A program made the position numbers and the translations under genes. The notes beneath the pieces were generated by a model. It did not search any database and had not been told where the DNA came from. It saw only the letters and a list, made by a program, of their open reading frames with translations. 64,000 bases of DNA from a virus: IMG/VR virus record IMGVR_UViG_3300027608_000013; one strand, given 5' to 3'. Below, one piece after another: positions 284 through 63,091 of the stretch. Positions within the stretch are counted from its first letter, which is position 1. Every line of letters starts with the position of its first letter.

Positions 284-883
284 ATGAATTACCAAAGAAT
301 ACATGATGCCATTATTGATAGAGCTCGCACAAGAATGTTGCTAGGCTACTGCGAACGGCATCATGTTATTCCTAGGTGTTTAGGTGGAAATGATGCAATT
401 GGAAATATAGTCAAATTAACAGCTCGAGAACATTTTATAGTTCATAAACTGTTGTGTGAAATTTATCCTAATGAAACTAAATTAGTTTATGCATATTGGA
501 TGATGTCTAGAAATGTTTCAAATTCTAAATATAAACGAGAGTATCGGGTATCAAATAGAGATTATGAACGATCGAAACAGTTATTCAGTGAAGTATCTAG
601 TTTTAGACAAAAAGGTAAAACATTATCTGATGCACACAAACAAAAACTTCAAATCGCAGCAAAAACAAGAAAAACTAGAATTCCAATAAAACATTCAGAA
701 AAAACAAAAGAAAAATTAAGTGCCATATGGAAAGGAACAACTAGATCAATTGAAGATAGACAGAAAATATCTGCAGGTCAACGTGGCAAAAAACATAAAA
801 TAATAAAATGCCCATATTGTAACATTGAAGGTGGAAATCGAACGATGAAACGATGGCATTTTGATAAATGTAAAAATAAATAA
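284..883 (+). CDS. Free-standing HNH homing endonuclease with NUMOD3-type repeats
   Basis: 'ERHHVIPRCLGGND..NIVKLTAREHFIVHKLL' HNH core; 'KGKTLSDAHKQKL', 'HSEKTKEKLS' NUMOD3-like repeats; C-terminal CPYC...WHFDKC. Confidence 0.85.
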   Translation: MNYQRIHDAIIDRARTRMLLGYCERHHVIPRCLGGNDAIGNIVKLTAREHFIVHKLLCEIYPNETKLVYAYWMMSRNVSNSKYKREYRVSNRDYERSKQLFSEVSSFRQKGKTLSDAHKQKLQIAAKTRKTRIPIKHSEKTKEKLSAIWKGTTRSIEDRQKISAGQRGKKHKIIKCPYCNIEGGNRTMKRWHFDKCKNK

Positions 884-886
884 ATT

Positions 887-1939
887 ATGAATAAATATCA
901 AGAATTGTTTAACAAATTAAAAGAAGACCGTGCCGTCAACACCGATGTGAATGATCATATCATGGTGTTTGACGGCCTTTAGCTTAACACATTCATACGT
1001 AGCTTTGGCGCTTCCCCATCATATAATGAAGATGGCGACCATGTAGGCGGCATAACTGGATTTTTATATTCAGTTGGAAAAACGATTAGAGATTTTAAAC
1101 CTAGTCGTTGCGTTATTGTTTTTGATGGTAGAGGAGGCTCTGCAAAAAGAAAACGCATTTACAGTGATTATAAAGGCAATAGGGCCAATAAAACAAAGCT
1201 TCGGCGTCACGACCACCATGAATCTACTATAGAAGAAGAACAAGAATCAATGCGTCATCAATTTTCTCGATTGATTTCATATCTAGATAATTTGCCTATT
1301 ACGTTTATTTCAATGGATGGTATTGAAGCAGATGATACAATTGCATACATAACTAATATGTATCAAGATATCAGTAAAAAGATGACTGTGGTATCTACGG
1401 ATAGAGATTTTTATCAATTGATTTGTCCTACATTGCAAGTATGGTCTCCAATCAAAAAGAAAATGTATGATGAAGCTGCATTAATTGAAGAATTTGGAGT
1501 TCATCCTGCAAATTATGTAGTATATCGTACTTTTACGGGCGATGCTTCTGATAATATTCCAGGTGTTGACGGATTTGGACCAAAGACTATCTTAAAGACA
1601 TTTCCAGAACTTGTTAGCAGCAAAGAATTTACGTTGCAAGATTTACAAAATAAATGTAAATTGTTAACTGAATCAAAAAATCATCAAAAAGTTCTTGCTA
1701 ACTATGACACTATTGATAAAAATTATCGATTAATGAACATAAAACTTTTAGATATTCCAGCTCAAACCTCAACTAAAATACGAGGAATATTAAATGAACC
1801 AATTCCGTCACTTAATCGAGCAGAATTCCAACGCTTATTTTATGAAGATAAGATGTGGTCTATAATGAAGAATTTGCCAGATTGGCTAAACAATACTTGG
1901 CTTTCTTTGAATGCATTTGCAAAACAAACACAACATTAA
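887..1939 (+). CDS. 5'-3' exonuclease / flap endonuclease (PolI N-terminal or T4 RNase H-like), interrupted by an in-frame TAG at 980-982
   Basis: Manual translation from ATG 887: MNKYQ...IMVFDGL*LNTFIRSF...VIVFDGRGGSAKRKRIYSDYKGNR, in frame with ORF 1250-1939 (EADD, STDRDF, GDASDNIPGVDGFGPKT motifs). Confidence 0.9.
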
Positions 1940-3426: not shown

Positions 3427-4095
3427 ATGGGAAGGCCTAAAAAAAATTTACCGGAAGGAGTTACTACTAAAATAATTAAAAATATAGAATGTTTAATCCG
3501 ACAATGTCCATCATGTGACAAAGAAATTATATATTCAAGCCAATCATCGCGATGGAACGTACGATTAGCAATACAAGAAAATAGATTATGTTCTAGTTGT
3601 AGAATTCTACCCGATCCATGGAATAAAGGATTACCTCTTTCTGAACAACATAAATCAAATATTAGTAATTCTAATATCGGAAAAAGTAGACATAGCGATG
3701 AATACAAACAATGGTTGAAAACAAATAGTATGTTTTGTAAAACAGGTAAAGATAGCGTAAGTTTAAACGCATATTTGAAAAAGAATAATATAACATATGA
3801 TGAATATCTAGAAAGATTGCCTAAATTTAAAAAATATCATCGAGATGTAATGAATATTACCAAAAAACAAGATATATCAAATTTGTCAAATTTAAACTTA
3901 CGAGGACTTGCTGGAGTAACTGGTGCATATCATTTAGACCATATAATTTCTATAAAAGAAGGGTTTGATAAAAACATTTCTGCAGATATTATTGGACATA
4001 TAACAAATTTACAGTTTATTACATGGGAAGCCAATATTAAAAAATCAATTGAATATAAAAATAAAATAAAGGTAAATGAAAATGGAAACATCTAA
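3427..4095 (+). CDS. Putative HNH-type homing endonuclease with Zn-ribbon and NUMOD3-like segment
   Basis: CPSC..CSSC; 'PWNKGLPLSEQHKSNIS'; C-terminal 'YHLDHIISI...NLQFITWEANIKK'; overlaps the RNR start. Confidence 0.7.
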   Translation: MGRPKKNLPEGVTTKIIKNIECLIRQCPSCDKEIIYSSQSSRWNVRLAIQENRLCSSCRILPDPWNKGLPLSEQHKSNISNSNIGKSRHSDEYKQWLKTNSMFCKTGKDSVSLNAYLKKNNITYDEYLERLPKFKKYHRDVMNITKKQDISNLSNLNLRGLAGVTGAYHLDHIISIKEGFDKNISADIIGHITNLQFITWEANIKKSIEYKNKIKVNENGNI

Positions 4096-46875: not shown

Positions 46876-48108
46876 ATGAAACCATTAATCATCTCCCTCC
46901 TATTTATTTTAATAAATTTATTTTCCTACTCTCAAGGAGTAGCGATTAATTCAGATGCTAGTAATCCAGACGCATCAGCCATTTTGGATATCAAATCTAC
47001 CACAAAGGGTGTTCTAATATCTAGAATGACCCAAACTCAAAGAAATTCTATTACTTCTCCAGCAACCGGACTGTTAGTTTACCAAACAGATAACACCCCT
47101 GGATTCTACTACTACAACGGTACAACATGGATTGCGTGTGACACAGACACAGATACAAATAGTGGAGGTACTTTAACAAGTGTAACAGCAGGGAGTGGAC
47201 TTGATGGTGGTACTATAACATCTACCGGAACAATATCAATGCCAAATGTGGGTACTGGAGGAAGTTATGGTTCGGCTACACAAACACCAGTTTTAACTAC
47301 TGATGCTCAAGGTAGAGTAACGGCCGTTACAAATACAACAATTACAGGAACAACACCTGGAGGTGCAGCAGGTGGGGATTTAACTGGAACATACCCAGAT
47401 CCTACAATAGGAACAGGTAAAGTAACTTCAACTCACATATTAGATGGAACTATTACAACAGCAGATGTTGCAAATAGTGCAATCGACGGAACAAAAATAA
47501 ATTTAACATCAAATGCAAATGGCGATATGATGTATTATGATGGTACTGATTGGGTGAGGGTTGCTGCTGGAACATCAGGGCAAGTTTTACAAACCAATGG
47601 TGCTGCCATACCGACCTGGGTTACTAAACCTGATAAATTTAACATCAATTTTACCAATGGAGCTGGATTATCTGTAACCAATAATTTGTGGTATACTTTA
47701 ACAGCATCTCAAACATTAACATCTACCGCTCAAGGAACATCCCCAGATAGAAGTGGATTAGCAATTCCCATCCAAAATGCTTTTACATTTACAGCAACAC
47801 AAGCTTGTACTATGACTGGATTTAGAATGTGGATTTCAAATAGTACAACAAATAAAATTTATGCTGTTTCTGTTTATAAATACCCCATTGCCACGAATGC
47901 AACAGTTTTAGGTACTGGTGCTGCTTTAATTGCTTCAACCAACGTAACAGTTTCACCAACTGTTGCTTACGGAATGACATCAGTTACCATAACTCCAACG
48001 GCAACAACAATAAATGCGGGGGAAGTAATTATGATAATGATAAAATCATCACCTACTAATACCCAAACAGTTTACTTAAACGGATCAATGGAATTTACAA
48101 ATCAATGA
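46876..48108 (+). CDS. Secreted Bacteroidota-type fibre/adhesin-like protein
   Basis: Signal peptide ending 'YSQ'; '[30 protein letters not shown]' module; Gly/Thr-rich repeats. Confidence 0.7.
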
Positions 48109-59901: not shown

Positions 59902-59988
59902 AGTCAGGTAGCTCAGTGGATTAGAGCATGATATGCTGTAACCAATCAGGATTTTCAGAGGTCACAGGTTCGAATCCTGTCCTGACTA
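59902..59988 (+). tRNA. Atypical tRNA or tRNA-like RNA (possible Tyr-GTA with bulged anticodon stem)
   Basis: Acceptor AGTCAGG/CCTGACT, D-arm GCTC/GAGC, T-arm ACAGG-TTCGAAT-CCTGT; irregular anticodon arm around CTGTAAC and a long variable region. Confidence 0.6.
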
Positions 59989-60217
59989 CAAAATTTTTAA
60001 ATTATGATTTTAGACACTAAACTTAGAAAGTTTGCAGAAGAAACAACTGACATGCTTTATAATATTTACTATGAACAAATATTAAATGGTGAAATATCTC
60101 CAGATATACAAAAAGAAGAATATTCTTCTATTGTTGATGATACTATTAACTATTTTTTAAGAATTGAGGAGTATGAAAAGTGTTTAGAATTACAGGTTCG
60201 AATCCTGTCCTGACTAC
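59964..60217 (+). repeat. 26-bp direct repeat of the tRNA 3' end flanking a small ORF
   Basis: ACAGGTTCGAATCCTGTCCTGACTAC at 59964-59989 and 60192-60217. Confidence 0.9.
60004..60213 (+). CDS. Hypothetical protein with 'EEYEKC' UVR-like motif
   Basis: ORF between the direct repeats; its stop codon lies within the second repeat. Confidence 0.5.
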   Translation: MILDTKLRKFAEETTDMLYNIYYEQILNGEISPDIQKEEYSSIVDDTINYFLRIEEYEKCLELQVRILS

Positions 60218-62872: not shown

Positions 62873-63091
62873 ATGAAAAAATTATTATTGATTTTGCCGG
62901 TTTTGGTTGCGTGTAAAGCATCTAAACCAAGTTGCGAAGCATATGGATCCATTCCAAGAGCGGATACCGTATACTTGGAACAAATACATGATCATTTCGA
63001 AACTGATTCAACTTATAAGTGTATATACTTTCCGGAGGAAACATTTATAATTACGTATCACGATACAAGCACACAAGTTCAAACAAAATAA
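62873..63091 (+). CDS. Putative lipoprotein
   Basis: MKKLLLILPVLVA-C lipobox-like signal. Confidence 0.55.
   Translation: MKKLLLILPVLVACKASKPSCEAYGSIPRADTVYLEQIHDHFETDSTYKCIYFPEETFIITYHDTSTQVQTK

Follow-up and report, generated by a model that had tools for sequence, protein, structure and literature searches.

How a phage could still make an exonuclease from a gene that carries a stop codon beside its first catalytic aspartate is the question raised by a locus in the 64-kb IMG/VR record IMGVR_UViG_3300027608_000013. This record, the whole of which (64,000 nucleotides, nt) we refer to as the window, derives from a freshwater metagenome and is phage-like in sequence, with 33% G+C and open reading frames (ORFs) densely packed on one strand; all gene positions given here are on the + strand. 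The frame of the 5'-3' exonuclease gene begins with an ATG at 887, 3 nt past the stop codon of an HNH endonuclease gene, and reads GAC GGC CTT TAG CTT AAC ACA TTC ATA CGT from 971 to 1000, after which it stays open to a TAA at 1937-1939 (318 codons from the TAG). A first-pass annotation of the sequence had described this layout, and our ORF list and translation agree with it. We propose, as the probable explanation, that the HNH gene and the start of the exonuclease gene form a homing cassette similar to that of T4 MobA and gene 60, and that an insert conferring immunity is skipped by a +6 "stop-hop" of the ribosome, which would restore the D-G-x5-R spacing of the exonuclease.

The TAG codon lies in a 6-nt insertion

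Translated with the TAG read through, the exonuclease gene matches the Pfam families 5_3_exonuc_N (PF02739; 1.2e-29, 103.5 bits against a cut-off of 34.3) and 5_3_exonuc (PF01367; 40.1 bits against a cut-off of 40), the domains spanning the stop, and also the PHROGs exonuclease family phrog_107 (2.8e-34). The nearest exonucleases of cultured phages, which infect Microcystis and Flavobacterium, are 39-43% identical. On alignment with the Taq 5' nuclease, D29 corresponds to Taq D18 and the EADD, TxDxD and GDxSDN motifs are kept; the D-G-x5-R spacing is satisfied only when 6 nt are skipped, and the Taq and M. smegmatis Pol I 5' nucleases require a 2-residue gap opposite the extra residues. The sequence DG-LN(T/M/A)FIR is ungapped in 17 close homologues (up to 93% identity) and in 71 related viral loci, and no insertion between D-G and the conserved Arg was seen among the aligned homologues or the two solved Pol I 5' nucleases. 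Because all TAG-less relatives read DG-LN...FIR without a gap, the window allele is a 6-nt insertion and not a point nonsense mutation, a distinction that the first-pass annotation had drawn correctly. Skipping of the TAG together with one CTT would restore the spacing of the family beside the catalytic Asp. The features of the locus are as follows.

1-264, +: 3' end of the upstream gene (ORF list), with a TAG stop at 262-264; left flank of the cassette
265-988, +: mobile cassette of about 720 nt (junction mapping), comprising a short leader, the HNH gene, a copy of exonuclease codons 1-31, the TAG and the landing codon
284-883, +: Mob-like HNH/NUMOD3 homing endonuclease gene, 199 amino acids (phrog_655, Pfam NUMOD3), with a TAA stop at 881-883
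887-979, +: exonuclease ORF, part 1, codons 1-31 (translation), which ends in the take-off Leu and holds the first catalytic Asp, D29
932-976, +: 19-bp hairpin of -25 kcal/mol predicted by folding, its 3' arm reaching up to the base immediately 5' of the take-off codon
977-979, +: proposed take-off codon CTT (Leu31), the same in all TAG-bearing alleles
980-982, +: in-frame TAG, followed by C, the same in all TAG-bearing alleles
983-985, +: landing codon as proposed, CTT; one contig (L112/L180) has CTG instead
986-1939, +: exonuclease ORF, part 2, 317 codons plus stop, with the remaining catalytic motifs (Pfam, Taq 5' nuclease alignment); recipient-genome sequence outside the cassette

No other interrupted ORF was found in the window. 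TAG is the rarest stop there and truly ends 4 of the 75 ORFs; as the ORFs tile the window under table 11, with TAG terminating these 4, a global reassignment of TAG was rejected. Positions 977-985 hold the only stop between matched codons that has long open frames on both sides and is unexplained by a neighbouring start. Two more matched-codon stops, TAC TAA TAC at 48054 and TTA TAA TTA at 63045, have ordinary start codons just downstream and were set aside as chance occurrences.

The gene could have been split, with re-initiation giving a 31-amino-acid peptide plus a truncated enzyme that would come together as one split protein, and gene splitting by Mob endonucleases is known, for example in nrdA and gp39/gp60 (Manning & Atkins, bioRxiv 10.1101/2022.08.31.505936). 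In the window, however, no ATG, GTG or TTG occurs between the TAG and codon 122, the first such codon lying not before 1250; the near-start Ile codon, the fourth past the landing codon, varies among ATA, ATC and ATT; and the second piece would be without the catalytic Asp.

Automatic gene callers do split TAG-bearing alleles (L182-L198) into an ORF of 31-32 amino acids and a truncated exonuclease that begins at an internal Met, and these alleles are mis-annotated in public protein sets.

The insert recurs in independent assemblies

The nine bases CTT TAG CTT were present in 9 of the first 80 loci. Five more IMG/VR contigs brought the total from that source to 14, three further contigs came from JGI metagenomes, and ten loci in ENA, Logan and JGI assemblies were reached by way of the HNH protein. 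The nine bases also occur in an independent freshwater assembly of 2024 (X2, a 604-nt contig with no gaps), and a metatranscriptome contig, that is, one from an RNA library (X18), retains the 6 nt. This check on independent datasets used assembled contigs only (X2, X18 and X20); dataset X5 had no coverage of the site. In total, more than 25 independent contigs from IMG/VR, JGI, ENA and Logan carry the sequence, and the insertion is clearly not a singleton, which is what the first-pass annotation would have predicted. Its accompanying worry, that a repeat of TAGCTT at 1000-1005 betrayed an assembly artefact, proved unfounded in view of this recurrence. The repeat is irrelevant to the insert, because the stretch in which it lies differs among TAG-bearing alleles.

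One RNA contig without the 6 nt, X20, was considered as a case of RNA-level removal and rejected as such, since 15 other differences identify it as a TAG-minus allele. An artefact of assembly or sequencing was rejected as well, because the insert recurs across many independent assemblies and in different backgrounds. It is also conceivable that the 6 nt are lost from a fraction of the genomes, slippage deletion between the directly repeated CTT codons being possible in principle; yet the insert was missing in none of 14 assessable contigs with the cassette block. Even taken jointly, re-initiation, loss of the 6 nt from some genomes and artefact appear to us very improbable.

The insert is part of a mobile cassette

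The ORF upstream of the exonuclease gene matches the PHROGs homing endonuclease family phrog_655 (2.8e-49) and Pfam NUMOD3, and its product is about 38-39% identical, over its full length, to annotated Mob-type (MobE-like) homing endonucleases of T4-like phages. When cultured-phage DNA was searched with the window, the sole match was a piece of about 113 nt of this gene, which is 75% identical in nucleotides to T-even mobD-type genes. Residues H26, H27, N41, H50 and H54 of the HNH motif are invariant in our alignment (A2). Among the HNH genes of 11 cassettes, pairwise synonymous divergence (dS) is 0.4-1.5, and the ratio of nonsynonymous to synonymous divergence (dN/dS) is 0.15-0.3.

Association of the insert with this gene is close. 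In the first sample, an orthologous HNH gene lay directly upstream in 10/10 TAG-bearing loci and in 1/71 TAG-minus loci, and all TAG-bearing loci found later have an HNH gene or HNH pseudogene in that position. Conversely, wherever the cassette-type 5' block was present, the TAG was present also (14/14 assessable IMG/VR contigs). In three pairs of genomes with and without the cassette (L013/L017, L027/L055 and L001/L003), which share 95-98% identity beyond the unit, the left junction falls a few bases upstream of the HNH ATG and the right junction no more than 10 nt past the landing codon. The gene before the HNH gene in related loci matches RecA_N and Rad51 of Pfam and is thus RecA/UvsX-like; in genomes without an HNH gene, its stop and the ATG of the exonuclease overlap (TAATG). 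The copy of exonuclease codons 1-31 that lies within the cassette is about 68% identical to the sequence it replaces and is one codon shorter. Between TAG-bearing alleles, these codons are about 95-100% identical, with the HNH gene only about 75%.

TAG-bearing alleles are scattered on the exonuclease tree, where well-supported branches force at least 7 changes, and 7 or more exonuclease backgrounds carry them. In no pair does the exonuclease dS fall below the HNH dS. The two observations together point to an old element that has repeatedly invaded older backgrounds. The first-pass annotation had supposed that the insert co-occurs with the HNH gene and that the two travel as a mobile cassette; both suppositions hold, and the near-identical genomes that differ in having or lacking the whole unit strongly support the mobile-cassette interpretation. 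In three lineages the HNH gene is broken, by nonsense mutations in L021 (2366-2992) and L040/L105 (2389-2994) and by a frameshift in L112 (1501-2096), and in each of these the hop site and the exonuclease are intact.

HNH genes of the same family (61-79% identity) also precede alleles that have no TAG (L096, L100, L113, L185-188, L192, L193/194 and L044), and on the HNH tree they are interleaved with those of the TAG-bearing cassettes. Thus, the presumed link between endonuclease and insert stands as a co-occurrence, but the insert seems not to be the sole solution. In most of these TAG-less alleles, codons from about 16 to 31 are rewritten (e.g. SLTPTNPNDHIMVCDG) and, with folds of -2 to -8 kcal/mol, the hairpin has gone; L044, with a hairpin of -14.5 kcal/mol, is the exception. 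In L002, only HNH remnants persist, beside a rewritten exonuclease allele. The pattern fits a recognition site for the HNH enzyme that covers the hairpin region. There look to be two routes to self-immunity, namely, rewriting of the target, at a cost to conservation of protein and hairpin, or keeping both and adding 6 nt. The rewritten alleles match the classical "mutated target" self-immunity (target-site polymorphism) of free-standing homing endonucleases. Unlike target polymorphism, or genes in pieces such as the MobE-split nrdA, the TAG-bearing solution spares both protein sequence and hairpin and would rely on recoding.

More distant HNH homologues (44-52% identity) were observed at other sites around the exonuclease gene of related phages, both upstream and directly downstream: L025/L026 (4104-4583 and 233-763), L038/L039 and L117-L121. 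The module of RecA, exonuclease and helicase genes appears from these occurrences to be a hotspot for free-standing endonucleases.

The proposed hop site is constrained

The HNH genes provide a measure of how far the cassettes have diverged. Across the 11 cassettes, variation affects 22 of the 23 fourfold sites at conserved HNH residues, and the third-position tree length is 7.5; GGC CTT TAG CTT AA is invariant in the same 11, and synonymous differences begin immediately to its 3' side. Only two changes to the site were seen among all TAG-bearing alleles. One is GGC to GGT, which keeps a G-U pair in the hairpin, and the other, in a single contig with a frameshifted HNH gene, combines GGC to GGA with a landing codon of CTG. 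A scan with degenerate patterns for other stops and other flanking codons found only CTT TAG CT[T/G], plus unrelated chance matches in L175 and L179. The matched flanking codons that the first-pass annotation had pointed out are thus kept throughout, as CTT/CTT or, once, CTT/CTG. In 71 TAG-minus alleles, the corresponding Leu codon is CTC, TTG, TTA, CTG or CTA and never CTT. Cleavage immunity alone would not demand an exact sequence, so the invariance of the site suggests a constraint beyond immunity.

With regard to the elements expected of translational bypassing, the codons for take-off and landing could be read by one and the same tRNA (CTT/CTT, and CTT/CTG in one allele), and a poorly decoded A-site codon, the invariant UAG, follows take-off. 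A stem-loop and mini-Shine-Dalgarno sequence of the gene-60 type are lacking from the coding gap, which at 3 nt is too small for them, and the only structure is the hairpin upstream, at 932-976.

The same data bear on simple readthrough, in which a near-cognate or suppressor tRNA of phage or host would decode the UAG, perhaps at a low level, to give D-G-L-X-L-N (...DGLXLNTFIR) with two extra residues by the catalytic Asp. In E. coli, termination is weak at a UAG that C follows; a tRNA-Gln(UUG), near-cognate to UAG, is among the window's genes; and the 64 kb searched for a suppressor are only part of the genome. The products of hop and readthrough would differ by only two residues (PMC5009743). 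We nonetheless consider readthrough improbable. It would place residues between D-G and the Arg where, as noted above, neither aligned homologues nor solved Pol I 5' nucleases have any, and it leaves unexplained both the second Leu codon and the use of CTT at both positions when TAG-minus alleles never use CTT. Moreover, were two residues tolerated, replacement of TAG by a sense codon would be an improvement and should have taken place. For 4 ORFs of the window TAG is a true stop, the TAG stop of the upstream gene is replaced by TAA in a relative, and a suppressor tRNA is absent from the 64-kb window.

A conserved hairpin precedes the proposed take-off codon

The last paired base of the hairpin at 932-976, a structure missing from the first-pass annotation, is the third base of the Gly codon, immediately 5' of the take-off CUU. 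None of the shuffled versions of the 91-nt stretch from 920 to 1010 folds as well as the native sequence. About -18 kcal/mol of the pairing involves bases 964-976, which, going by the footprint of the ribosome, would lie in its mRNA exit path when the CUU is in the P site.

TAG-minus alleles have a weaker hairpin in the same place, with a mean of -12.8 kcal/mol over the 48 nt upstream, as compared with -25 kcal/mol, twice as stable, in TAG-bearing alleles. We examined covariation in a set of HNH-less TAG-minus alleles (L003-L059 and L118) over the 45 nt before the Leu codon (equivalent to window positions 932-976, codons from about 16 to 30). In this set, 92% of cells are paired, against 26-50% with slid partners; six pairs show double changes, and none of 500 shuffles equalled the native alignment. 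GC/AU and AU/GC swaps occur at several pairs, including that of the Gly third base. Covariation in TAG-minus alleles indicates that the hairpin is ancestral to the exonuclease gene. Its role in ordinary alleles could be that of an attenuator, a determinant of mRNA stability or an endonuclease target. A simple terminator scan did not flag the hairpin, which may act as a terminator or attenuator.

In the cassette, the 5' arm of the hairpin is remodelled, encoding A-V-N-T where others have N-S-S-P-S, and is one codon shorter. Among TAG-bearing variants, 99% of cells are paired. There are two double compensatory changes (U-A to G-C and C-G to U-A) and five one-sided changes that preserve pairing (four from A-U or G-C to G-U, and one from G-U to G-C); one terminal pair is broken.

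Is the exonuclease still in use?

In all complete TAG-bearing alleles, the frame past the insert is intact over 317-322 codons and the catalytic motifs are complete; an exonuclease that looked short, in L197, reflects a scaffold gap of Ns and not a deletion. To the 5' side of the insert, the 31 N-terminal codons still encode VNDH(I/L)MVFDG with the catalytic Asp. The exonuclease gene is 1.6-fold longer than the HNH gene, and equal neutral decay of the two predicts about 5 breaks in it; none was seen (rough Poisson p ~0.01). In close TAG-bearing pairs the exonuclease dN/dS is 0.01-0.08, and low values on both sides of the insert, where the catalytic motifs are kept as well, are what the first-pass annotation had anticipated.

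Interpretation of these ratios is not straightforward. In L107/L108, the HNH dS (0.07) and the exonuclease dS (0.11) are similar, as for descent from a TAG-bearing ancestor, and the differences cluster near the junction. In the other close pairs, the exonuclease dS is far above the HNH dS. This clustering and the excess of exonuclease dS mean that recombination or repeated invasion confounds the test for purifying selection, and the evidence that the exonuclease is under such selection after acquisition of the cassette is suggestive only.

The observations just described bring in a different explanation, that the insert is simply selfish. The TAG would then terminate translation, carriers would lose the exonuclease or retain a trace of it, super-Mendelian homing would sustain the cassette, and the 6 nt would be kept for immunity only. 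TAG-bearing alleles have near-identical TAG-minus partners, so that most insertions look recent and intact frames need not mean selection; the excess of exonuclease dS over HNH dS extends to all pairs. T4 rnh mutants are viable, so a nuclease of this sort may be dispensable. The MobA element itself is possibly mildly deleterious (Manning & Atkins, bioRxiv 10.1101/2022.08.31.505936). A sequence kept for immunity only, however, would not be expected to leave CTT TAG CTT and its hairpin invariant or compensated while 22/23 HNH fourfold sites vary. Of the nine possible single-base substitutions in TAG, eight would create a sense codon; none of these was seen. The three broken HNH genes contrast with the absence of any break in the longer exonuclease gene, and the N-terminal codons retain their motif. 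We therefore regard a selfish, inactivating insert as unlikely, although it deserves to be taken seriously.

A proposed mechanism and points against it

According to the explanation that we favor, the cassette spreads horizontally among phage genomes, in which it settles at the boundary of the RecA-like and 5'-3' exonuclease genes. The HNH enzyme would cut insert-free alleles near the hairpin and Leu codon, and CTTTAG placed before the resident Leu codon would make the carrier immune. During translation, peptidyl-tRNA-Leu would rest on the CUU at 977-979 with the slowly decoded UAG in the A site, and the tRNA would unpair. The mRNA would then move by 6 nt and the tRNA-Leu re-pair on the CUU at 983-985, so that nine nt specify one Leu. 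Possibly, this forward movement is driven by the hairpin, whose 3' arm (964-976) would be in the mRNA exit path at take-off and could re-form there. The predicted product has the motif D-G-L-N-T-F-I-R and the junction peptide ...HIMVFDGLNTFIR. The specificity of cleavage, the immunity, the hop and its efficiency are what we infer; for cleavage and immunity, the grounds are the position of the junction and the rewritten target regions of HNH-linked alleles without the TAG. On balance, we lean slightly toward the fuller proposal that this is the first natural, selected in-frame stop-hop, across a 6-nt immunity insert in the catalytic D-G-L-N motif of a nuclease important for replication, aided by a co-opted and strengthened hairpin.

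Several considerations weigh against a stop-hop at this site. Translation through the hop is argued from sequence. The take-off and landing codons appear to have been conserved from a single insertion origin and not re-evolved, so that covariation between them is unavailable, and the contig with the CTG landing codon needs a tRNA-Leu that reads both CUU and CUG. The hairpin, being pre-existing, did not arise for the sake of hopping and may have some other role. Most of the insertions look recent, and with exonuclease dS above HNH dS as described, intact frames and low dN/dS could largely be inherited or refreshed by recombination. Synthetic stop-hops have an efficiency of about 1% or less. A +1 slip from CUU to UUU, a known competing event, would give a dead-end product, the +1 frame from 977 having 22 further codons before a stop at 1044-1046. 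No suppressor tRNA and no second exonuclease were found in the 64-kb window, the rest of the genome being outside the search. Finally, synthetic stop-hops are described as low-level events (bioRxiv 10.1101/2024.12.09.627546), and a useful yield here would hence need stimulators, which are only postulated.

Other features of the window

Between genes for a DnaB-like helicase and a class II ribonucleotide reductase lies an ORF of 222 amino acids (3427-4095) whose H-x3-H...N...N pattern hints at one more endonuclease of HNH type; Pfam gives no match, and the only PHROGs match is phrog_5104, of unknown function. At 59902-59989 lies an 88-nt tRNA-like gene, which scores 48.7 bits with the Rfam tRNA model; ARAGORN labels it Ile(GAT) and puts the anticodon in an implausible place. 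Its last 25 or so nt, corresponding to the T arm and the 3' strand of the acceptor, recur about 205 nt downstream, at 60193-60217, past a short ORF-like stretch. A mobile element may have left this repeat within 59902-60217 behind, as a tRNA end that was interrupted or duplicated.

Comparison with known systems

To our knowledge, natural bypassing has essentially one well-studied bacterial or phage paradigm, T4 gene 60, in addition to the yeast mitochondrial "byps". The locus described here resembles in several respects the translational-bypass cassette of T4 MobA and gene 60 (Huang 1988; Bonocora 2011; Manning & Atkins, bioRxiv 10.1101/2022.08.31.505936). A Mob-type HNH gene lies directly upstream of the recoded ORF. 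The insert carries a diverged and slightly shorter copy of the target that it replaces (here codons 1-31, about 68% identical), and it is located at an invariant catalytic metal-binding motif. The take-off codon, with a UAG after it, matches the landing codon, and the cassette ends at or just past the latter. Insertions are recent and in many backgrounds, the element itself being old, and the endonuclease is pseudogenised in some lineages with the bypass kept, as with the mobA pseudogene of laboratory T4.

There are also differences. The target is a 5'-3' exonuclease and not a topoisomerase, and it has not been divided into two ORFs bearing added tails. With a step of 6 nt, the coding gap measures 3 nt as opposed to 50 nt, stays in frame and leaves no room for a gap stem-loop or mini-Shine-Dalgarno sequence. 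As a candidate stimulator there is just the hairpin upstream, which was present in the target gene beforehand. No homology to the bypass region of gene 60 was seen, although no search for such homology was made. The element would seem to work like gene-60 bypassing without being a member of that cassette family.

Hops between matched codons around a stop were established in synthetic E. coli constructs (Weiss, Dunn, Atkins & Gesteland 1987; O'Connor 1989; summarised in PMC5009743). Those constructs share with the present site matched Leu codons around one stop, nine nt for one amino acid, and re-pairing of the P-site tRNA 6 nt on. They were, however, engineered, and hopped at a low level without stimulators, whereas this site is natural, conserved and beside a conserved hairpin. 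A 2016 review by Atkins and colleagues states that no natural stop-hop was known (PMC5009743), and we found none in the later literature. If our proposal is correct, hopping is used in nature, and this would be the first natural case of a stop-hop so far seen only in synthetic constructs.

The take-off codon is itself suggestive of other recoding sites. In the +1 shift of RF2 (prfB), CUU before a stop, UAG included, was the most shift-prone P-site codon tested (PMC5009743). RF2 (CUU-UGA-C), Ty1 (CUU-AGG-C) and the present site all have CUU as the P-site codon, then a slowly decoded A-site codon, then C. RF2 and Ty1 re-pair at an overlapping +1 codon and change frame, and RF2 has an upstream Shine-Dalgarno sequence, whereas only a +6 step would be productive here. 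For gene 60, pairing within the exiting mRNA has been proposed as the forward driver (Wills, Parsawar & Atkins, bioRxiv 10.1101/2024.12.09.627546). If true, a 9-nt site with one hairpin, simpler than gene 60, would be a clean natural test bed for that model and suited to dissecting take-off, re-folding of mRNA in the exit channel, and landing. It may also be that "pseudogenes" beside homing endonucleases hide further recoding sites.

Our findings, if the proposal holds, would mean that recoding has served homing endonucleases more than once as a way to immunity that spares the host gene. As part of the same joint proposal, and with the same slight preference in its favor, we see in this cassette the solution of MobA and gene 60 evolved a second time, independently and in minimal form.

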